Shown: positions 2,546 to 23,565, counted from the first letter of the stretch. The stretch: 24,000 nt of DNA from Cyanobacteria bacterium P01_G01_bin.54 (GCA_039180005.1 JBCDEB010000012.1:10275-34274); one strand, 5' to 3'. Notes: generated by a model from the letters alone, not told the origin. Numbers and translations: made by a program.

Positions 2546-4465
2546 CTAACCCACTGTTACCGTCTCCAACACGGTGGTCCAAAAGCCCGTAATCACCGAC
2601 CATTCACCACTAAAAATCAACCAAAACAGCAAGGCAACGCCCAAAACCATCGTCAAGAGATAAAACTGTGATTGGCCCGAGACATTGTATTTAAGGGAAC
2701 TGCCGCCAAAGATGGTCGCCAGACCCACCAGGTTCACCACCCCATCAACGATATAGCGGTCGAACCAAGCCGTAAACCGAGAGGCACCAGAGACCGCCGC
2801 CACCACCGTCAACGCATAAAAACGCTCGATATAAAAGTCATAGGCCAAGAGATCCTGTACAAAGCGCAGGGGACGCAGATTCGGACGCGCCCAAGCCCGA
2901 TTGAGCGGTAGTTTCGTCCCAATTAGAATCCCCACCAGACCCGAACCCGCAATCAAGGGAATATGGACATTCTCCAGCCAATGGGTGGGGGCATCGAGGG
3001 GGGCATGGGGGCTCAGCCAGAGGGGCCATTGCCGGGGGGCGATCGCCACAACCGCCACAACCAGGGTCAAGGCGACCATCGGCAGCGCCATGGGCCAAGC
3101 CACCTCGGGAGTTCGGCGGGTTTTAGGTTGGGGCTCACCCCAGAAGACCAACCGGAAAACCCGCACGAGGTTAATGGCACTCAGGGCATTGACAAACAAC
3201 ACCATCACCAGCAACCAGAAGGGTGTGTGCCATTGGCCGTTAAACCAGCGCTCCACGGTCCAGAACATGCCCAGCGGCAGTAAGGCAACTAAGCTGGCAC
3301 TGCCGACGCCGTAAGCGGTCGTGGTGGCTGGCATCCGCGACCAGAGTCCGCCCATTTCGGTAATGTTCTGATTGCTGGTCGTCAGGATCACCGAGCCAAT
3401 GCTCATAAACAGCAACGCCTTGGCCAGGGCATGGCTAAAGAGCAGCAAAAAGGCGATATCCACCTGCCCGAGACCCACGGCAATGAACACGAGACCCATG
3501 TAGGCACTGGTGGAATGGGACAGGGTCCGCTTGATATCGATTTGGGCGATCGCCATCAACGAGGCCCCCACCGCCGTCACCGTGCCCAACACAATCAACA
3601 CATCAGAGACCACCGGCGAGAGACTAAAAACCGGTTGGAGCTTGATTAAAACATAGGCCCCCGCACTGACGACAATCGAATTGCGCAAAATCCCGGCGGG
3701 GTTGGGCCCTTCCATCGCCTCATCCAGCCAAAGATTGAGGGGGAACTGGGCACATTTACCAATCGGCCCGGCAATCAGCGCAAAGCCAATCAAGGTGACG
3801 GTTATGGGGGCGATCTGCGAGCTGCGCAAATGCAACTCCAATTCACTAAAATCCAGCCCTGCTCCATCGCTAGAGAGGGCGACCATGCCCATCAGCAGCA
3901 GCATATCACCCACCCGTTTGGTCAAGAACGCATCTCGGGCGGCAGTGACGACCAGGGGCTGGGCATACCAAAATCCCACGAGGAGGTAGGTTGAGAGCGT
4001 CAAGACCTCCAGAAAGCCATAGCTGAGAAAGAGAGAATCACTCAGGGCGATACCACTGAGTGCCGCCTCAAAGAGTCCCATTAGCCCATAGAATCGCGCC
4101 AGAGACCAGTCCTTTTCCATATAACCCAAGGCATAGAGCTGAACCAGGAGGCTCAAACCCGTGACCAAGGTCAAGGCCCCCAAGCTCACCGGCGAGAGAT
4201 AGAGGGTCAGGGAAAGATTGAAATCCGCCAGACTCAGCCAATTGAATGCCACTTGGTAGGGTGCTTGATCCCAAATCCCTTCGAAAGCGATCGCGCCATG
4301 GACAAAGGCCAGCACGGTCATCAAGAGGTTGATATAGGCCGCCGGGCGCGGACCCGTGCGACGAATGATACCGAGTGACCAGGGCAGGGTCAACATGGCC
4401 CCCAGCAGACCATAAAGGGGCACAAACTCAGTGTAGTCGAGCAAAACGTTGGTTAGGGCATTCAT
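2546..4465 (-). CDS. ndhF: NAD(P)H-quinone oxidoreductase subunit F (NuoL/ND5 antiporter-like family), NdhF3/F4-type paralog
   Basis: A 639-aa polytopic protein. The N-terminus (PLYGLLGAMLTLPWSLGIIRRTGPRPAAYINLLMT) and the core (QFPLNLWLDEAMEGPNPAGILRNSIVVSAGAYVLIKL, SHSTSAYMGLVFIAVG) are typical of cyanobacterial NdhF. ILRNS replaces the LIHAATMV of respiratory NdhF1; I associate this from memory with the CO2-uptake paralogs, unverified. It pairs with ndhD and lies next to the ccm genes. Confidence 0.88.
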   Translation of the reverse strand: MNALTNVLLDYTEFVPLYGLLGAMLTLPWSLGIIRRTGPRPAAYINLLMTVLAFVHGAIAFEGIWDQAPYQVAFNWLSLADFNLSLTLYLSPVSLGALTLVTGLSLLVQLYALGYMEKDWSLARFYGLMGLFEAALSGIALSDSLFLSYGFLEVLTLSTYLLVGFWYAQPLVVTAARDAFLTKRVGDMLLLMGMVALSSDGAGLDFSELELHLRSSQIAPITVTLIGFALIAGPIGKCAQFPLNLWLDEAMEGPNPAGILRNSIVVSAGAYVLIKLQPVFSLSPVVSDVLIVLGTVTAVGASLMAIAQIDIKRTLSHSTSAYMGLVFIAVGLGQVDIAFLLLFSHALAKALLFMSIGSVILTTSNQNITEMGGLWSRMPATTTAYGVGSASLVALLPLGMFWTVERWFNGQWHTPFWLLVMVLFVNALSAINLVRVFRLVFWGEPQPKTRRTPEVAWPMALPMVALTLVVAVVAIAPRQWPLWLSPHAPLDAPTHWLENVHIPLIAGSGLVGILIGTKLPLNRAWARPNLRPLRFVQDLLAYDFYIERFYALTVVAAVSGASRFTAWFDRYIVDGVVNLVGLATIFGGSSLKYNVSGQSQFYLLTMVLGVALLFWLIFSGEWSVITGFWTTVLETVTVG

Positions 4466-4863
4466 GTCAAAGCAGGGTCAAGGACGTCAGAAAGCTGGAC
4501 TATTCCTCTGATTGTCCTATGGATGGGTCATAAAGCGCATGGCAGATCCAATAAATTGGCGATCACCGCATCAGGGTCTGTTACCCACTTCACCCCGCGC
4601 ACCTTTTTCCTGCGGTCTCCTGCAAACTCAGCGGGCTGATCCAATTGATCCCCACTGCGAAATCAACCAAAACAGTGCATTATTCTGCACTTGTAACAGG
4701 GATTGAGCCAACCATAGATCAATAAAAATGCAGGATACCTTCCGGATTAATTTTTATCTATGCAATGAGTAATCACAACTGCTCCATTCAACAAAACGCA
4801 AGATCCAGCCAGGGCGATCGCCTCAATCCCTTGACCGAAAATGTCCTTGACGGACTGCCATAT

Positions 4864-5226: not shown

Positions 5227-5538
5227 ATGCCTATTGCAGTTGGAATGATTGAAACCTTGGGTTTCCCTGCCGTGGTTGAAGCCGCTGATGCCATGGTCAA
5301 AGCCGCCCGCGTTACCTTAGTGGGCTACGAAAAAATTGGCTCCGGACGTGTCACCGTGATTGTCCGGGGGGATGTTTCCGAAGTGCAAGCTTCAGTTTCT
5401 GCAGGGATTGAATCGGCCAATCGTGTCAAGGGCGGTGAAGTGCTCTCCACCCATATCATTGCCCGTCCCCACGAGAATTTGGAATACGTGCTGCCCATTC
5501 GCTACACCGAAGAGGTCGAACAGTTCCGAACCTACTAG
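5227..5538 (+). CDS. ccmK2: Carboxysome shell hexamer protein CcmK2 (BMC-H)
   Basis: A 103-aa protein, [57 protein letters not shown]...[26 protein letters not shown]. This is the canonical CcmK sequence without the C-terminal extension, and it has a good Shine-Dalgarno. Confidence 0.95.
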
Positions 5539-5741
5539 CGCAGCGGCAGAATTTTGAGCGATTGGGTTGTGGTTCACTGCCCCAAACCCTCGCTGCCCAG
5601 CTCGTCGTAGATACGGCTCTGTGCCCCCACACGTTAGCCCCGAAGCTGAACCGTTATCGGCCCCGTTAACCCAGCATGCTAACCGACCGAGCGAATTGGT
5701 CAAATTAACCCTATGAGATTGAATTAGAGGATTGAATAACG

Positions 5742-6074
5742 ATGTCAATTGCAGTTGGAATGGTGGAAACATTAGGGTTTCCTGCCGTGGTTGAAGCCGC
5801 TGATGCCATGGTCAAAGCTGCCCGCGTTACGCTGGTGGGCTACGAAAAGATTGGTACCGGGCGTGTCACCGTAATTGTTCGGGGCGATGTTTCGGAGGTA
5901 CAAGCCTCTGTGGACGCAGGCACTGAAAACATCAAGCGTGTCAATGGCGGTCAGTTGCTCTCGACCCACATCATTGCTCGCCCCCACGAGAACCTCGAAT
6001 ATGTTCTCCCCATTCGCTACACCGAAGCGGTGGAGCAGTTCCGTGAGAGTGTTAACCCCTCACTGAGACGCTAG
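5742..6074 (+). CDS. ccmK1: Carboxysome shell hexamer protein CcmK1 (BMC-H with short C-terminal extension)
   Basis: A 110-aa paralog of the upstream gene. It has the C-terminal tail [10 protein letters not shown], resembling the CcmK1 tail of Synechocystis (REIVNPS...RR as I recall it). The order K2-K1-L-M-N matches the Synechocystis ccm operon. Confidence 0.92.
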
Positions 6075-6081
6075 GGACACC

Positions 6082-6420
6082 ATGCAGATTGCACAGGTTC
6101 GCGGCACGGTTGTCAGCACCCAAAAGCTGCCCACGATGACCGGGATCAAGCTGTTGCTCTTACAGTTTATTGATCACGAAGGTCAGTTGCTCCCTCAGTA
6201 CGAGGTCGCCGACGATCGCGTCGGGGCAGGCATTGGGGAATGGGTGTTGGTCAGCCGCCGCTCGATTGTTCCCCAACGGGAGGTCGAGGATCAGCGCCCC
6301 GTCGATGCGCTCGTGGTAGGCATTATCGATACAGTCTCCGTAGAATCCGGCCAGCTCTACAGCAAGAAAGATGAGTATCGGGTGCGACCCGCTCCGGCTC
6401 GATCCAAGCTAACCTCCTGA
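6082..6420 (+). CDS. ccmL: Carboxysome shell vertex (pentamer) protein CcmL (EutN/CcmL family)
   Basis: MQIAQVRGTVVSTQK...KLLLLQ...VADDRVGAGIGEWVLVS...DALVVGIIDTV is the typical BMC-P/CcmL pattern. It starts 7 nt after the ccmK1 stop. Confidence 0.9.
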   Translation: MQIAQVRGTVVSTQKLPTMTGIKLLLLQFIDHEGQLLPQYEVADDRVGAGIGEWVLVSRRSIVPQREVEDQRPVDALVVGIIDTVSVESGQLYSKKDEYRVRPAPARSKLTS

Positions 6421-6545
6421 GCCGGATTGCCTTGGTTTTATCCACCCCATCCCTTGTGGTCATCCTGCTCCATTCCCATTCTCTGTTGCCCTGGAAACCC
6501 CAAACTCCCTCTAAATTCAATTGGTTATGAAGGAAGGAAATTGTC

Positions 6546-8576
6546 ATGGTTGTCCGTAGACGCGCGGCTCCCCCCACACCCTGGTCGAGGGGTCTCACTG
6601 AACCCCAAATCCACCCCTCCGCCTACATTAATTCGTTCTCGAATGTTATTGGCGATGTGCGCATTGGGGCGAATGTGTTGATTTCGCCGGGTACTTCGAT
6701 CCGGGCCGATGAGGGGTTCCCATTCTATATTGGCGACTATACCAATGTGCAGGATGGGGTGGTCATCCATGGCTTAGAAAAGGGGCGCGTCCGGGGCGAC
6801 GATGGTCAGGACTATTCCGCCTGGATTGGTAAGAATACCTGTATTACGCACATGGCGCTCGTCCATGGGCCCGTTTATGTGGGCGATGATTGCTTTATTG
6901 GCTTCCGTTCCACGGTGTTTAATGCCAAGGTGGGCAATGGTTGCATTGTCATGATGCATGCATTGATCCAGGATGTGGACATTCCACCTGGCAAATATAT
7001 CCCCTCCGGTGCGGTGATTACCCATCAACAGCAGGCCGATCGTCTGCCGGATGTGCAAGAAGCGGATCGCGCCTTTGCCCATCATGTGGTCGAAATCAAC
7101 GAAGCCCTGCGGGTGGGCTATCGCTGTGCTGAAGACCCGAGTTGCATTCGCCCGATTCGCGATCAAGCGGAATCGGACACCCCCGCCCCCCATTTTTCGC
7201 TTAACGCTGACAACGAATTAGTAGACCTAGCAGACACCACCATGAGCCTAACTCCTGAAACGATCGAACAGGTGCGATCGCTGCTGCGGCAGGGATACAC
7301 CATTGGTCTTGAACATGCCGACAAACGCCGCTTCCGCTCTAAATCTTGGCTGACCGCACCGAGCATTCAGAGCAGCCGTGAAGGGCAGGTTCTGGCCGAA
7401 CTCGAAGACCGCCTCGCGGAATACGCCGGGGAATACGTGCGCCTGATTGGCGTTGACGCCCAGGCCAAGCGCCGCGTTCTCGAAGAGATTATCGCTCGGC
7501 CCAATGGCAATGCGCCCCAGCGCAAGCATCGAGCCACAATCCGTACCAGCGCTGCCACCAATGGCGTCGTGGCCACCAATGGCTTAGGCGGCGAAGTCGT
7601 CGAGCAAATTCGCTCCCTGCTGCGTCAGGGCTATAAGATCGGCACGGAACATGCGGACAAGCGCCGCTTCCGAGCCAAGTCTTGGTTGACGTGTCCCCAA
7701 ATTCAAGCCACCCAGGAGCAAGCGGTGTTTGCGGAGCTCTCCCAATGCCTTGCTGATCATGCTGGGGAATACGTGCGCCTGATCGGTGTCGATGCCAACG
7801 CGAAGCGCCGGGTGATGGAGATTATTATCCAGCGTCCCGGTGATGCGCCCGTCGCAGCCAGCCGCAATGGTTCCGCTCGCTACTCAGCCAGTAATGGTCA
7901 ACACACCAGTAATGGGGCGGGTGCAGGACTGAGTGAGCAAGTTCGAACTTTATTGGGTCAGGGTTTGAGCATCCGGGCTGAGCATGCCGACAAGCGGCGC
8001 TACCGTTCTAAGTCTTGGCTCACCTGCGCGGGCATTGATGGCACCAGTGAGACCCAACTGATGGGCCAGCTCCAACAGGTTTTGACGGAATATCCCAATG
8101 ATTACGTCCGCTTGATTGGCGTGGATGCCAATGCCAAACGGCGGATCAGCGAGATCATTGTTCAGCGTCCGGGTAATGGCAATGGTACAGCGACCGCCGC
8201 CATCAGCAATCGTCCGGCCAGCCGCAACGGCTATAGCGCTAGCAGCTATAGCGCCAACAGTAATGGGGCGGCGACCTATGCGACGAGTAGCTATGCTAGT
8301 CCAACCTCCAGCAGCAGCTTGGATAGCGCGGTAGTGGATCAGGTGCGATCGCTCCTGCGTCAGGGTTACAACATCGGCACGGAACACGCGGATAAGCGCC
8401 GTTTCCGGGTCAAGTCCTGGCAGCCCTGCTCACCCATTGAATCGAGCCGCGAAGGGGAAGTGCTCACCAAGCTGCAAGACTGCCTTAATGAGCATTCTGG
8501 TGAATATGTACGCTTGCTCGGCATTGATGCTGCGGCTAAACGTCGGGTGTTGGAGCAGATTATCCAGCGACCGTAA
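6546..8576 (+). CDS. ccmM: Carboxysome assembly protein CcmM: N-terminal gamma-carbonic-anhydrase (left-handed beta-helix) domain plus four RbcS-like (SSUL) modules
   Basis: The N-terminus [31 protein letters not shown] is typical of CcmM. The hexapeptide-repeat gamma-CA core carries His75/His102/His107 ([15 protein letters not shown]). Four repeats follow, of the form VxQ(V/I)[25 protein letters not shown]...[16 protein letters not shown]. Confidence 0.95.
7251..8573 (+). repeat. Four tandem SSUL (small-subunit-like) coding repeats inside ccmM, separated by low-complexity linkers
   Basis: Module coordinates from my residue count:
- SSUL1: aa 236-319 (nt 7251-7502).
- SSUL2: aa 349-431 (nt 7590-7838).
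- SSUL3: aa 462-542 (nt 7929-8171).
- SSUL4: aa 595-676 (nt 8328-8573).
The linker between SSUL3 and SSUL4 is a roughly 52-aa Ser/Ala/Asn/Tyr-rich stretch. Confidence 0.9.
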
Positions 8577-9798: not shown

Positions 9799-10121
9799 GA
9801 TGTTGCTCCGGTGGGAGTACTCACTCTTTTTAATAAAGTATTAATTTCATTAATCAGTCGCACAAGGAATGGATATTGAGAAATCTGCATGGATCTGTCA
9901 ATAGTCGCCAAAAAAGTTATAGCTTCGTGATAAGCTAACTCTCGAAAGAAATTTTTACAGAATCTCTTAGATCGCTAACGTGCATTGCTGGCATCTCACT
10001 GTTCTCGGATTTTGAGGAACGTCTTCAGTGACTCATCTCCCAGGAAGCACAGCAGAGCAGTTGTGAACGACATCGAGTTTTCATTGCAGGCCTCACACCC
10101 AAAGAGGAGGAATTGAGGATC

Positions 10122-18599: not shown

Positions 18600-18667
18600 C
18601 TAAGCGATCACGATCACCTTGGCGGCCGATACCCTGAACCCACCCCGGTCTACGCTACGCTTGACCG

Positions 18668-18693
18668 CCCCTCCCGAGAGGGGATTTATGGTT
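18668..18693 (+). terminator. Candidate terminator after the DUF3179 gene
   Basis: CCCCTC (18668-18673), loop CCGA, then GAGGGG (18678-18683), followed by ATTTATGGTT. The stem is GC-rich but the U-tract is interrupted. Confidence 0.3.
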
Positions 18694-18778
18694 AAAATCT
18701 CCGACTGGGAGGAGTACCCTGGAGTGGGGAGGTGGGTTGACCCACTCTGCTCTCCAGAGGACATTTTGCGACCTGCCA

Positions 18779-19366
18779 TCAAACCCGCAACAATGTCGGT
18801 CGATCGCGGGTGGCCACAATTCGCCGACAGCCCGACTCGGGAAGCGCCCATTGATAATGCCGCTCCTCCGGCTTACCCCAGCAGAGTCCCAAATAGACTT
18901 CGGTCAGCGCTGCATCGACTTCGGCCCATTCCGCCTCGCCGATAAAGGTTTCGACCAACTCCGGGGAGAGACGTTGCTGCTCTTTGCCCATCAGCCAGAG
19001 TTTTAAGCCTGCTGTCGTCTGCCGCCAAAACGCCAATACATTAGCTTTGGAGGCTTGCAGCGCCTGTTTATCGGCGGCGATCGCAATCAATTGATTGTGC
19101 AACTCCGGAAAACGCACCGTCTGACCGCCAAACTGACAGGTGCGCCAAATCAGCCCCGAAACGCCGTAGCGACGCTGATAGTCATGGATCTGTTCGCGAA
19201 ACTCTCGATAGGCATACACTCGACTGATCTTGTCGTTGCCGAGCGCCAGAGAGAGAACCGGGTCATTGAAGCGCTCTTGGGCCGAGAGCAGCACCCGTTG
19301 ACCCCGACAACTGGCCCGCATTTCTTTTTCGAGAATCTCAATCAGTTGCTGTGTGGAATAGGGCAT
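18779..19366 (-). CDS. Hypothetical protein (195 aa), likely co-transcribed with the upstream 882-aa gene
   Basis: An ATG-initiated ORF, 82 nt downstream of the stop of the 882-aa gene on the same strand. Its GC content and HIP1 content look like the host genome. I recognise no motif in MPYSTQQLIEILEKEMRASCRGQRVLLS...CWGKPEERHY. Confidence 0.55.
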   Translation of the reverse strand: MPYSTQQLIEILEKEMRASCRGQRVLLSAQERFNDPVLSLALGNDKISRVYAYREFREQIHDYQRRYGVSGLIWRTCQFGGQTVRFPELHNQLIAIAADKQALQASKANVLAFWRQTTAGLKLWLMGKEQQRLSPELVETFIGEAEWAEVDAALTEVYLGLCWGKPEERHYQWALPESGCRRIVATRDRPTLLRV

Positions 19367-19448
19367 AGCGAAACCGTTGAAAGAGCGTGCCAGTCTTTCC
19401 CTGAATGATAGCGTTGAATATCATCAGGGCGCGTCATTAAAACCTGAC

Positions 19449-22097
19449 TTACTCCGACTCCCCACTCAAGGCTTGCTCCAGCTTCTTCTCATCAATCTCA
19501 CGCAGGGGAACCAATCCCGCCTTTTTCAACAAGAGCTGGCCTTCATCGGTCAGGAGCAAAGCAGCAAAGGCTTGGCCAATCGGTTGGCGGCGGTTGTCGA
19601 GGGGATAGACAACGGCCAAGGGATAAGCGAGCGGATAGCGCTGCTGGCGAATCGCCGCAATATTCGTGCGATAGCTCCCTTTCTCATTGCAGAGATCCGT
19701 CCGGGGACTAATCGAGAAGCCCCAATTGTTGATCAAGGGTGAAACCGGGCCTTTACCCCCGGCTTTTAGGGCGAGCGGATAAACCGAGCATTGGCCAAAC
19801 ACCTCGGAAAGGCTGCCAAAGGCGATCGCCCCCACCTGAGTCGCTTCAAAATCCCGCAGCACCGCATTCAGGGTTTGAAAGGTGGTCAGCCGGGTGATCT
19901 GAGTGCTGGCGGCACTGGCGCTGCTGCGCTGACTGCGCAGTTCTCGGAACTTGGCGATCGCCTCTTCGGTTTGTAACACCCGTTGCTCAAAAATGGCCAC
20001 CGCCTCCTGATCATCAGGAATATAGAGTTTGACGGCGAGATCAGGGCCCCCGATTTCTTGCCAATTGGTAATTTCCCCGGTATAGAGTTGCCGGAGTTGC
20101 CCCAGGCTAATTTGACCGTTGAGGCCTCGGGGCAAGCCGTTGCGACGGTCTTCGTAGCTAAAAGCCACATAGACGGCGATCGCATCGTAGGCAAACCGCT
20201 CGTACCAGAAGTCAATGCCCAGATTCTCCAGCAAGCTACTCACCGCAAACTCGGCTTCTTGATCCCGGACTTTGGCGATGGCATCACTTGCGGAGGGTTG
20301 GGGAAGATAGGTGAGGGTGATCCGGGTGGGCTCCTCGGCTTCCGCATCGCTACCCGCAGCAGCTTCCTCTGTTCCCGATTCGGCTGTCCCATCCCCCGCT
20401 GCGGCTGGATCAGCGTCTGGCGCAGGCTCATCCGTCTGAGCTGGAGTGGATGCGTCGCTGGCTGCGGCTGGGTCACTCGCTGCGGCTGGGCTTGGACTAG
20501 CCGCAGCGCCTTCCTCCGGTGCCGGACTATCGGGATTGAGGCGGCGATCGATTTCACCGGCCAGGGTTTTGTCCTTGACAATTAAATTCGCCTGCTGCCA
20601 AATGGGCGTCCAGACCCCAGCCCCTTCGCCCGTGAAGCGAATCGTTCCCTTGGGCAGGCCAGACACTTGATTCACGCAGCAGATCGTGGGGGGGCCGGGC
20701 AGGGGGGGCTCTGCCGTTAAGCGCTTGAAAAGCTGGAAGAGCCCACCCAAGGCCCCCACTGCGAAGAAGAGGAGCAGCAAAATCCGTAGCCAGGTGGGGG
20801 GGAAGGGCTTGCTGTCGTCCTGCAGGGTTTCGGGTCGGTCAACCACCGTGACCGGTTCCGGAATCGGCAACTTCAGCAGGGCTTGCCGGGCCAGACTTGA
20901 CGATTCAAAGGGCAGATTATTAAGCCCCATAAGCCAGAGAATATAGCGCTTGAAAGCCTCCGGAGTCGCCTCGGGCCAATATTCGGGCACACCGGGGTCG
21001 AGGGGGGTTTGGTTGCCCGGATCCGCCGATCGCCCCGCTAACAGATAAAAGGCCACCTTGCCCAAATCTTCCAGATCGCCCACCACCGAGGGCTCGGGAA
21101 CCGTTTGATTAAGCGGCAAAAAGAGATGCTCCCAGAGGGCCGGGTCGGCGAGGTAAATATAAACCCCCTGGAAGTTGGGCACAATCAGTAGGCTCTCTAA
21201 GTTCAAGTTACCGTGGGGAATGCCGATGCGCACAATACCTGTGGGCAGGCGATATTTCTGCTCATGCAGCCCCTCCAGGCTCTGGAGCACTTGCAGCAAA
21301 ATCTGCCGCACCAGATAGGGCGAAAGGGGTCCCGTTTCTTTGAGGTATTGTCCGAGAGTCGGGAAGATCTCTGGGGTTTCCGGCAAAATGCTATAGGCTC
21401 GACCAGACTGCAATTGCTGCTGCTCATTGGCCGTGAGTTCCACAAGCCCATCCAAAGGAACATCCCAGCGTAGATCCGGTGTACGGCGATCGGCCAGCTC
21501 CAAGCTGGTGAAATGGTCAAAGGTGCGCTTGCGCTGTTGCAACTCCAACGGGTGTTCCTTGAAATGACGCACCGGGAGTAAATATTCCTTGACGAGTACG
21601 GGCTGGCGATCGAGCAGATCGATCGCCCGGTAAATACGACCCAGGTTCCGGGTCTTCAAGAAACTCTCAATCTGGTAGCGGCCGCGTTTGCCCTGAATCT
21701 GGGTTTCGGGGGACAGTAGCGTTGGAAACCCACATCGCGCACAGGTTTTGGCCTCAGGATTCTCGTCAAGGGTTTGGGCGGGCCATTCACAATGGAGCGG
21801 ATTATTGTGCAGACAGCGATAGGCCGTGTAGAGGGGCGGCGGTGGGGTCAGCAGCTCCACTTCCGGCTCCGCCGCTGCGGTCTCATCCTCCGTGAGAATG
21901 CGAATCACCTCTTTTTTGACCTGGGGAAATTCAGGGGTGGGCAGCGAAATTCGTTGCACTGCCTCAGTGATGATCCAGCGATACCGGGCTGGGACAATCT
22001 GTGCCGCGCGAAACGAGGCGTTGGCAAACAACATATTGAAGCGACCGGTGATGCCCAGCACCTCGCGGTTTTTGATCGTTTCTAAAATGTTGGACAT
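19449..22097 (-). CDS. Multidomain membrane protein: N-terminal region, 4-Cys zinc-ribbon-like element, degenerate Ser/Thr-kinase-like domain, one TM helix, PstS-like periplasmic binding domain with a low-complexity insert
   Basis: Domains in order along the protein:
- Cys4 element: YRCLHNNPLHCEW...KTCARCGF.
- Kinase-like subdomains: LGRIYRAIDL...PVLVKEYL (VAIK-like Lys); IPHGNLNLESLL in place of HRDLKPEN; YLADPALW in place of DFG; GDLEDLGKVAFYLLAG (subdomain IX).
- TM helix: WLRILLLLFFAVGALGGLFQLF.
- C-terminal PBP-like features: GTIRFTGEGAG, ISLGQLRQLYTGEITNWQEIGGPDLAVKLY, GAIAFGSLSEV. Confidence 0.7.
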   Translation of the reverse strand: MSNILETIKNREVLGITGRFNMLFANASFRAAQIVPARYRWIITEAVQRISLPTPEFPQVKKEVIRILTEDETAAAEPEVELLTPPPPLYTAYRCLHNNPLHCEWPAQTLDENPEAKTCARCGFPTLLSPETQIQGKRGRYQIESFLKTRNLGRIYRAIDLLDRQPVLVKEYLLPVRHFKEHPLELQQRKRTFDHFTSLELADRRTPDLRWDVPLDGLVELTANEQQQLQSGRAYSILPETPEIFPTLGQYLKETGPLSPYLVRQILLQVLQSLEGLHEQKYRLPTGIVRIGIPHGNLNLESLLIVPNFQGVYIYLADPALWEHLFLPLNQTVPEPSVVGDLEDLGKVAFYLLAGRSADPGNQTPLDPGVPEYWPEATPEAFKRYILWLMGLNNLPFESSSLARQALLKLPIPEPVTVVDRPETLQDDSKPFPPTWLRILLLLFFAVGALGGLFQLFKRLTAEPPLPGPPTICCVNQVSGLPKGTIRFTGEGAGVWTPIWQQANLIVKDKTLAGEIDRRLNPDSPAPEEGAAASPSPAAASDPAAASDASTPAQTDEPAPDADPAAAGDGTAESGTEEAAAGSDAEAEEPTRITLTYLPQPSASDAIAKVRDQEAEFAVSSLLENLGIDFWYERFAYDAIAVYVAFSYEDRRNGLPRGLNGQISLGQLRQLYTGEITNWQEIGGPDLAVKLYIPDDQEAVAIFEQRVLQTEEAIAKFRELRSQRSSASAASTQITRLTTFQTLNAVLRDFEATQVGAIAFGSLSEVFGQCSVYPLALKAGGKGPVSPLINNWGFSISPRTDLCNEKGSYRTNIAAIRQQRYPLAYPLAVVYPLDNRRQPIGQAFAALLLTDEGQLLLKKAGLVPLREIDEKKLEQALSGESE

Positions 22098-22193
22098 GGG
22101 GATTCGTTAGGGGCGCTCAACGATACTGTGCATGACTTTAGCATCCCTACCCATTCGCCTTTGGCTCAACTCAACCCTTTGTCACACGCCCGT

Positions 22194-22302
22194 AAAAAAT
22201 AAAAATCCCTGGCAAGCGCAAGGTTTGCCAGGGAACTTCTCATCAGGGTGCATCTACCACTACTGGTATTCCGGTCTGGAGCGAAGCATCCGGAGAGTTC
22301 AG
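22194..22302 (-). ncRNA. Gene-proximal copy of an unclassified structured RNA ending in an intrinsic terminator
   Basis: Minus-strand RNA: GAACUCUCCGGAUGCUUCGCUCCAGACCGGAAUACCAGUAGUGGUAGAUGCACCCUGAUGAGAAGUUC. Proposed helices:
- Closing helix: GAACU.../...AGUUC.
- First hairpin: UCCGG/CCGGA.
- Second hairpin: UACCA-GUAG-UGGUA.
It is immediately followed by the terminator CCCUGGCAA-ACCUUGCGC-UUGCCAGGG (22233-22207) and AUUUUUAUUUUUU (22206-22194). Confidence 0.45.
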
Positions 22303-22321
22303 CCCTTCGTCACACGCCCGT

Positions 22322-22430
22322 AAAAAATAAAAATCCCTGGCAAGCGCAAGGTTTGCCAGGGAACTTCTCATCAGGGTGCATCTACCACTACTGGTATTCC
22401 GGTCTGGAGCGGAGCATCCGGAGAGTTCGG
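22322..22430 (-). ncRNA. Gene-distal copy of the same structured RNA plus terminator
   Basis: The fold is the same as the proximal copy, with one loop substitution. The terminator hairpin is at 22361-22335 and the U-tract at 22334-22322. A possible -10 box, TAAAAA (minus strand, 22443-22438), lies just upstream of the first helix. Confidence 0.45.
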
Positions 22431-22680
22431 CGAAATTTTTTTAGAGCACGGGTTTAACCCCAGTTCTAGATCAGCGAAACGATCGTATTCCTCAAAGCCC
22501 TACAATCTCATTGTCAAACCCGGTTGTCAGGGGTCCAGCCCCCCAACACCTCCCGCTGAGGGGGAGATTGCCCCCTCAGACTCCGGCAATATCGGAGCCA
22601 GTATTTGATTCTGCGAAGCTTCGACCGTCTTGCGCGATGTCTGCTTATCCAGAGTTCAAGTTAAAAAGGTGTGTTGGGTG

Positions 22681-22713
22681 TAGGTTGGGTTGAGCCCAGC
22701 GAAACCCAACACC
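22681..22713 (+). repeat. Hairpin repeat, copy 1 (TAGGTTGGGT - loop - GAAACCCAACAC)
   Basis: TAGGTTGGGTTGAGCCCAGCGAAACCCAACACC. The arms GTTGGGT / ACCCAAC are complementary. An extra half-arm, GTTGGGT, lies at 22673-22679. Confidence 0.6.
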
Positions 22714-22842
22714 GACAGTGTTTTCGAGATTGAGCCCCTTAGTGATCCTGCCACGCAACAGATCGGGACAAACATAGAGGGATTGCCCTACAGGATTTTC
22801 TAATCCAATATTTAAACGGTGTCACGACCAGAGGCGTCTGCC

Positions 22843-23565
22843 ATGCCCCAGAAAAAAACAATCATCAAGCGATTAACAGATCTCCTGAGCGTTCTGGGCA
22901 TGGCGTTAGTTATTGGCCTTGCCCTTCGGAATCTGGTGATCGGTGCGATCGCCGGCATACTACTCTTTGGGCTCTCGGGCGGCTCGCTCCTGTGGGGCGC
23001 TTTGGCGGGGGCAGGGGTGGGCGTACTCTTCCTCTTATCGGAGCTTTTTCTGGACGAGGATGACCTGCCGCTGTTCGGGAGTCAGCCCCAAGGCACCACA
23101 ACGGAACTTGACCCCCAATACCCCTTGGCCGCTGGGGAAATCGGTCGGCAAATTGTGATCCGGCGATCGCTCCCGGTCGTCTTTGCGGAAGTGCTCGATT
23201 TTGAGCGCCATGGTGAATGGTCTTGCGAAGTCGGCTTGAGAATTCGCCACCTTTCGGGCGATCGCCAGCAGGTGGGTGCGCGTTTTCAGCGACAGGCCAC
23301 TGAAATTGGCGCATCGGAAACCTCGATTTTGCAAATTACCGAGATCATCCCCCACCAGAAAATCACCTACACCCAAGCGTCAACAGACTCAAAACCGATT
23401 AAAATTATCGGCGGTTATTTCTGCTTTGCAGCCACAACCGAGGGAACGCAGGTGGCCGCTGTTTTGCAATTTAAAACCTCACCTGGATTTGGCGTTGTTG
23501 AGCGTTTGTATGAGCCGGGTATTCATCAAGATTTAATTAATCTGAAGGAGCGGTTGGAGGCTTGA
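22843..23565 (+). CDS. Membrane-anchored SRPBCC (START/Bet v1-like, polyketide-cyclase-type) domain protein
   Basis: The N-terminal hydrophobic segments are LSVLGMALVIGLALRNLVIGAIAGILLFGLSGGSLLWGALAGAGVGVLFLL. The C-terminal ~150 aa follow the SRPBCC pattern: I.I.R.....VF..L.DFERHGEW, ITEIIPHQKITY, and a terminal helix LINLKERLE. I prefer the ATG at 22843 (MPQKK...) to the GTG at 22819. Confidence 0.55.
   Translation: MPQKKTIIKRLTDLLSVLGMALVIGLALRNLVIGAIAGILLFGLSGGSLLWGALAGAGVGVLFLLSELFLDEDDLPLFGSQPQGTTTELDPQYPLAAGEIGRQIVIRRSLPVVFAEVLDFERHGEWSCEVGLRIRHLSGDRQQVGARFQRQATEIGASETSILQITEIIPHQKITYTQASTDSKPIKIIGGYFCFAATTEGTQVAAVLQFKTSPGFGVVERLYEPGIHQDLINLKERLEA

Follow-up and report, generated by a model that had tools for sequence, protein, structure and literature searches.

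A probable pair of tandem nsiR1 genes upstream of a kinase-like/PBP gene in an apparently heterocyst-free cyanobacterium

Introduction

NsiR1 is a small RNA of roughly 60 nt that is encoded in Nostoc sp. PCC 7120 by 12 tandem copies upstream of hetF, each of which possesses its own promoter with a DIF motif, TCCGGA, around position -35 (PMC4030482, PMC9045159, PMC6133370). According to citations in PMC9045159 and PMC4030482, Ionescu et al. 2010 reported the RNA from Nostoc (Anabaena) sp. PCC 7120 and from further heterocyst formers. A definition of the DIF motif is given in PMC4030482 and PMC6133370, a 70-nt DIF-motif promoter from nsiR1 is sufficient for expression (PMC4030482), and the array as a whole is transcribed away from hetF (PMC8406250). 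In Nostoc, the features of the class further include HetR- and NtcA-dependent induction on nitrogen step-down and post-transcriptional repression of hetF or of targets of the alr3234 type.

NsiR1 has been described as confined to heterocyst formers, and, together with the DIF1 promoter, it is regarded as a hallmark of heterocyst development (PMC6596454, PMC4030482). There is one exception in the literature searched, namely Limnospira indica, for which expression of an NsiR1-like RNA is mentioned in passing (PMC8400943). This RNA, RNA162 of strain PCC 8005, is described as an NsiR1 homolog of about 57 nt; it has been annotated, and its transcript detected, in a filamentous organism that neither forms heterocysts nor fixes N2 (PMC8400943).

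Here, we examine a tandem repeat in a 24,000-nt stretch of cyanobacterial DNA, referred to throughout as the window, which an earlier note had interpreted mainly as a pair of riboswitches or attenuators in the leader of an 882-aa gene. The comparative evidence instead points to two tandem, independently transcribed genes for the cyanobacterial small RNA NsiR1, a reading to which we assign a probability of about 0.88.

Results

The host and the wider window

The window is a segment of a cyanobacterial chromosome with a GC content of about 0.52, and it carries ndhF/ndhD-type genes, ccmM, ccmN, rbcL, rbcX and rbcS, as well as a type IIG restriction-modification enzyme. The closest named homologs of the 882-aa protein are found in Spirulina sp. 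SIO3F2 (69%) and in other Spirulina (about 50%), and the host is therefore read as being of the Spirulina type. The Spirulina lineage belongs to the Spirulinales, which are not known to form heterocysts; the host thus appears to be a Spirulinaceae-like cyanobacterium without them.

Directly after rbcS, the segment 12455-16487 contains a small ORF, a ParE-toxin-like ORF (so assigned from a Pfam match on the identical contig L122), and a 1121-aa restriction-modification enzyme of the Eco57I/MmeI type. The GC content falls to about 0.47 in this segment, which looks like an inserted defence/addiction island beside the RuBisCO operon.

The repeat consists of two NsiR1 units

Tandem Repeats Finder, applied to the whole window, reports one tandem array at 22171-22428 (period 128, 2.0 copies, 97% matches, no indels), in agreement with the head-to-tail 128-bp duplication that the earlier note had recognized. 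When the two units are aligned on the minus strand, their sRNA bodies and terminators are identical: the identity runs from GAACTCTCCGGA through the terminator and beyond, the sole internal difference is one base of the promoter spacer, and further divergence is seen at the unit edge. The short-read assembly of the source run (contig L001, window 18656-22210) breaks inside the proximal repeat unit, at 22210, so that counts of tandem nsiR1 copies taken from fragmented assemblies are probably too low.

An Rfam scan of the whole window yields exactly two matches above the gathering score, both of them to NsiR1 (RF02399; gathering score 39 bits) and both on the minus strand. The matches, at 22259->22198 and 22387->22326, each score 54.9 bits and cover model positions 1-60 of 60, and the 5' segment UGGUAGAUGCACCCUGAU of NsiR1 is exact in both copies. 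By every sequence-level criterion, the window element is therefore a member of NsiR1, and the units do have a known class, which the earlier note had been unable to name. Its second choice, a duplicated sRNA gene, proved to be the right one. The sole addition from a permissive Rfam scan of 21500-23500 (E <= 1) was an miRNA match at the level of chance; no riboswitch family appeared. A coding reading of the repeat was also considered and rejected, as only unconserved ORFs of 23-69 aa cross it.

The features of the array and of the gene that follows it are listed below in the direction of transcription; all lie on the minus strand.

22417-22422, minus: DIF1-type -35 hexamer TCCGGA of the distal copy, occupying -35 to -30 when counted from the Rfam NsiR1 5' end at 22387
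22394-22400, minus: putative -10-like region GGAATAC of the distal copy, aligned with the homolog promoter block aGaA.Aa at about -13 to -7
22322-22387, minus: distal nsiR1 gene (RF02399 match), with the 18-nt conserved 5' end, a single-stranded linker and an intrinsic terminator
22334-22363 (stem) and 22322-22333 (T-run), minus: distal terminator, 128 bp further up from the proximal one
22289-22294, minus: DIF1-type -35 hexamer TCCGGA of the proximal copy, in the same register (-35) relative to 22259
22266-22272, minus: putative -10-like region GGAATAC of the proximal copy, from alignment with homolog promoters
22194-22259, minus: proximal nsiR1 gene (RF02399 match), with the 5' hairpin GGU/ACC, the linker CUGAUGAGAAGUU and a terminator
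22206-22235 (stem) and 22194-22205 (T-run), minus: proximal terminator, from terminator prediction and folding
22163-22187, minus: conserved block just past the terminator (GTGTGACAAAGGGTTGAGTTGAGCC), also found between the copies; TGTGA..AA.GTTGAG is common to the spacers of L123 and L126, two related contigs described below
22135-22140, minus: TAAAGT, candidate -10 box belonging to the 882-aa gene and located 38 nt ahead of its ATG; aligns with TACAAC in L123 and L126
19449-22097, minus: 882-aa gene, with a kinase-like N-terminal region, one hydrophobic segment and a C-terminal PBP_like_2 domain (PF12849, 2e-13)

Anatomy of a unit

Each 128-bp unit would carry a DIF1-type promoter, with TCCGGA at -35 and an atypical -10 region. 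Judging from Nostoc sp. PCC 7120, transcription would begin at the U of UGGUAGAUGCACCCUGAU or close to it, around 22259 and 22387, and would proceed through a short 5' hairpin, a single-stranded linker and a Rho-independent terminator to give an RNA of about 62-66 nt. Since TCCGGA lies at -35 to -30 of each NsiR1 5' end, a promoter-like element does separate the units, between which the earlier note had seen no -10-like box. The strong intrinsic terminators that it placed at the end of each unit are, on the other hand, clearly present: the last part of each unit is a GC-rich hairpin with UUUUUAUUUUUU after it, which in the RNA corresponds to a 10-bp GC-rich stem and U5AU6. The 66-nt proximal RNA is predicted to fold with -22.0 kcal/mol (z = -3.10).

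The putative window promoters, known from sequence, resemble the DIF+ class of Nostoc sp. PCC 7120 (PMC6133370, PMC4030482) in combining a palindromic TCCGGA at -35 with a non-canonical, A-rich -10 region, and in neither is another conserved element needed within about 50-70 nt. They differ from that class in that their -10 region fits the homolog consensus only after a shift of 1 nt. The NtcA box GTAN8TAC has no match anywhere in the window.

Conservation of promoter, 5' end and terminator

To place the two units among their relatives, the conserved 18-mer TGGTAGATGCACCCTGAT was scanned against one genome per species. At least 120 loci were recovered, among which the proportions of lineages are not population estimates; all are cyanobacterial except for one Clostridia contig, whose match is a chance hit. 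A set of 208 units was then taken, 206 from the listed loci and 2 from the window, of which 204 are unique.

TCCGGA is matched in at least 5 of 6 positions at -35+/-1 in both window units and in 205 of the 206 homologous units. This comprises all 84 Nostocales-like units and 121 of the 122 others, the single miss being the Clostridia contig. A hairpin of at least 5 bp precedes the T-run in 190 of the 204 unique units, and the 178 distinct terminator hairpin sequences have a median MFE z-score of -4.2, with 98% below -2. Furthermore, a stem-anchored pair census in Python revealed that the inner stem positions use all six canonical or wobble pair types; as judged from these sequences, the terminator is conserved as a structure rather than as a sequence. 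The invariant 18-nt 5' end, the -35 motif and the paired terminator of variable sequence recur in 205/206 units. The two window units thus belong to a family with the -35 motif in its canonical register and a terminator at the end, and all three attributes are conserved across many genomes.

Some variation is found in the promoter. Among the 122 non-Nostocales units, the palindrome TCCGGA is replaced at -35 by TCCTGA in 31 and by TCCGGG in 9, and in about half of the 122 the motif lies one base nearer to the sRNA start; units of these kinds come from L005, L007, L026, L028, L030, L034, L036 and others. Such variant hexamers and spacings may reflect a diverged recognition factor.

Relationship to the 882-aa gene

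Both nsiR1 copies point toward the 882-aa gene, whose ATG, about 97 nt beyond the last terminator, lies at 22097, where the earlier note had placed it. In the encoded protein, a hydrophobic segment, WLRILLLLFFAVGALGGLFQLF, is accompanied by a PstS-like PBP domain and by an acidic linker rich in Ala and Pro. Its long N-terminal region has no Pfam kinase match, and PF00069 is present in some of its homologs. The sequence HGNLNLES, which occurs where the kinase HRD motif might be expected, suggests a possible pseudokinase sensor.

Orthologs of this gene with an upstream NsiR1 were found in three related genomes:

L124: ortholog with 75% identity, NsiR1 at 4232-4293, gene start at 4551
L123 (Spirulina sp. 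SIO3F2): ortholog with 69% identity, NsiR1 at 9845-9909, gene start at 10001
L126: ortholog with 64% identity, NsiR1 at 9-71, gene start at 159

In each of the three, a single NsiR1 copy lies directly upstream of the ortholog and in the same orientation, with spacers of 88-258 nt, from which it follows that the duplication is private to the window's lineage. Relative to these genomes, promoter, sRNA and terminator form a conserved island with diverging flanks. The spacer to the 882-aa gene likewise diverges from those of L123 and L126, except for the TGTGA..AA.GTTGAG block and a TAnAnn box in which T, A and A are the invariant columns of the window, L123 and L126. Lying about 38 nt before the ATG, this box may be the gene's own -10.

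It might be proposed that the module serves two purposes, such that the nsiR1 genes are real but partial read-through of their terminators would feed DIF1-driven transcription into the 882-aa gene, making the array a conditional leader whose leak is set by the number of terminators. The co-oriented arrangement in the window and its three relatives is in keeping with this proposal, as is the observation that the window, L123 and L124 do not share the genes lying beyond NsiR1 on its other side. However, the terminators are strong and stand two in series, and the conserved TAnAnn box suggests that the gene has a promoter of its own. Moreover, NsiR1 is absent upstream of the orthologs at <=53% identity (L125, L127, L129), and no homolog of the 882-aa gene occurs within 8 kb at the other NsiR1 loci listed, which number at least 120. 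We therefore consider such a dual use improbable.

Thus, the notion that these units always precede orthologs of the 882-aa gene holds for the three closer relatives and fails for the more distant ones, and what survives of the earlier note's view of the array as a leader is the recurrence of the upstream position in related genomes. The location of nsiR1 upstream of the gene most likely reflects a gene order passed down within one sub-clade rather than service as a leader, although the co-oriented linkage in four genomes leaves room for a role in cis.

The proposed aptamer is largely promoter DNA

According to the main reading of the earlier note, each unit would comprise an aptamer and a terminator, both units would share one transcript, and the 882-aa gene would be under ligand control. 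When a single sequence is considered, the layout does fit: a foldable segment is followed by a terminator, the whole is repeated, and the gene begins shortly afterwards. The resemblance to tandem riboswitches or attenuators is nevertheless superficial, as the window has neither a conserved aptamer nor a match to a riboswitch family, and each of its units would be a separate transcription unit.

The 68-nt segment described as a structured RNA folds at the level of chance (MFE -17.1 versus a shuffle mean of -15.0, z = -0.73; 42/200 shuffles fold as well or better), and its MFE structure differs from the helices that had been drawn. Nor are these helices found in the homologs. Across the 204 unique units, UACCA/UGGUA is fully formed in 3, the second CCGGA needed for the UCCGG/CCGGA hairpin is likewise present in 3, and the closing helix occurs no more often than in a shuffled control. 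On this comparison of sequences, the three helices are private to the window's lineage.

The segment itself holds the promoter motif in register in 205/206 homologous units, and most of the supposed aptamer is promoter DNA upstream of the sRNA 5' end. Because TCCGGA is located at -35, the UCCGG/CCGGA hairpin amounts to the DIF1 palindrome together with a lineage-specific second CCGGA. The UACCA-GUAG-UGGUA hairpin straddles the predicted transcription start, and in the closing helix one strand is promoter DNA and the other belongs to the linker of the sRNA. An anti-terminator formed by CCCUG and CAGGG, which had also been suggested, fares no better: explicit structure evaluation gives -10.2 versus -22.0 kcal/mol for the terminator fold, about 12 kcal/mol worse, and an exact CAGGG in the terminator 3' arm is found in only 15/184 homologs. 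Taken together, these results render a riboswitch or attenuator very improbable.

Finally, a non-functional repeat, MITE-like or decaying and resembling NsiR1 by accident, is scarcely credible: near-identical copies do signify a very recent duplication, and the source-read assembly does break inside the repeat (L001 ends at 22210), but there are only two copies in 24 kb, terminal inverted repeats are lacking, and in three diverged genomes the orthologous site retains promoter, sRNA and terminator between flanks that have changed.

Discussion

Comparison with Nostoc and proposed function

The two nsiR1 genes of the window share with those of Nostoc the identical 18-nt 5' end, the short 5' hairpin, the single-stranded linker, the terminator, and an RNA length of about 60 nt. 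They are also arranged as tandem direct repeats, each with TCCGGA at -35, and score above the Rfam threshold. In contrast, there are two copies in the window versus 12 in Nostoc, and the linker reads GAGAAGUU where the Nostocales signature, absent from the window, is AACUAACU. Unlike in Nostoc, the window copies are neither beside hetF nor antisense to any 5' UTR, and they are co-oriented with the kinase-like/PBP gene rather than divergent from hetF. HetF of Nostoc punctiforme (L079:3406-5931, CHAT domain confirmed) indeed has no tblastn match in the 24-kb window, by Pfam the adjacent 882-aa protein has no CHAT domain, and those 24 kb contain no CHAT-domain gene. RNA162 of Limnospira indica, which the window copies resemble by description, comes from a different lineage (Arthrospira/Limnospira-type), and neither a tandem pair nor a linkage to the 882-aa gene is reported for it (PMC8400943).

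As the host is apparently heterocyst-free, expression that is "heterocyst-specific" cannot apply to it literally. The departures from the Nostoc paradigm thus concern context, in the lack of hetF and the co-orientation with another gene, and apparently also the biology of the host.

By analogy with Nostoc, nitrogen deprivation would induce the promoter via the HetR/NtcA pathway, and the sRNA would act in trans, pairing through its single-stranded 5' half with the translation-initiation regions of target mRNAs. On the same analogy, two identical copies would simply raise the dose. The 5' part of NsiR1 was compared by RNAduplex with 17 gene starts in the window, and pairing with these local mRNAs is at background level. 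For the start of the 882-aa mRNA, the value of -14.3 versus a shuffle mean of -15.6 represents no above-background pairing. The ORF at 22819, which scored best, was rejected as a target, its value of -21.1 being reached by 8% of random tiles.

A more far-reaching possibility is that the module is active in its heterocyst-free, Spirulina-like host and does there what it does in Nostoc, firing early under nitrogen stress and possibly in no more than a subset of cells along the filament. It would then belong to a cryptic HetR-type circuit older than heterocysts, and in this sub-clade its partner would have changed from hetF to a membrane kinase-like/PBP sensor gene, to which some read-through would couple it. 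We regard this scenario as unlikely; were it true, a cryptic circuit for HetR-type differentiation or patterning that predates heterocysts would be revealed.

NsiR1 outside the heterocyst formers

The survey bears on the distribution of the family more broadly. All 18 of the diverse non-Nostocales loci tested passed the curated Rfam threshold, among them loci from Symploca, Microcoleus, Phormidesmis, Crinalium, Geitlerinema, Hormoscilla, Spirulinaceae and Chamaesiphon. To judge from these matches, NsiR1 with a DIF1-type promoter is widespread outside the Nostocales.

Divergent nsiR1-hetF pairs were also observed in Symploca, Coleofasciculaceae, Phormidesmis, Leptolyngbyaceae, Crinalium and Hormoscilla, lineages without heterocysts (L045, L041, L031, L050, L070, L078, L009 and L083; HetF tblastn identities 42-59%). 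On L045, for example, NsiR1 lies at 5344-5361 on the minus strand and a hetF-like gene at 5580-7988 on the plus strand. The nsiR1-hetF linkage therefore seems to be older than heterocysts.

Larger arrays exist in such lineages as well. Microcoleus vaginatus GB1-A2 (L046 2686-4212) has 12 Rfam matches above threshold and Symploca sp. SIO2C1 (L021 3956-5253) has 8, numbers similar to the 12 known from Nostoc sp. PCC 7120. Two Chamaesiphon sp. MAGs carry NsiR1 at L016 5986-6045 and L032 1792-1845 (56.2 and 52.6 bits), with the variant -35 hexamer TCCCGA. Chamaesiphon is a unicellular genus; if these bins are clean, NsiR1 is not limited to filamentous forms.

Two further loci recall the window. 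Spirulina sp. SIO3F2, besides the copy that precedes its 882-aa ortholog, has a second NsiR1 locus on another contig, L067 4601-4776 (JAAHHN010000021), where two copies lie in tandem at a distance of about 120 bp. The genome of the window may, as in SIO3F2, hold further NsiR1 copies elsewhere. In a Leptolyngbyaceae MAG (L011), the SRP RNA gene is followed, about 1.1 kb further downstream, by NsiR1, which adjoins an ORF with RbcS-like repeats, rbcS and rbcX (4396-4492, 5616-5667, 5781-6107, 7229-8000), a layout resembling that of the window, in which nsiR1 is about 10 kb from rbcLXS.

Implications

Identification of the repeat as NsiR1 removes a false lead, as the window contains no new tandem riboswitch, and it extends a known family without adding a new kind of element. 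That one Spirulinaceae sub-clade has conserved nsiR1 ahead of a kinase-like/PBP gene is a small oddity, and the broad spread outside the Nostocales is the more interesting by-product. The complete module, with TCCGGA at -35, the invariant 5' end and the terminator, is found in many heterocyst-free lineages, often still divergent from hetF. Units such as those of Spirulina, Microcoleus and Leptolyngbya offer simple test systems, and the occurrence of the module in heterocyst-free lineages lends support to the idea that the heterocyst regulatory circuit is, in part, older than heterocysts.
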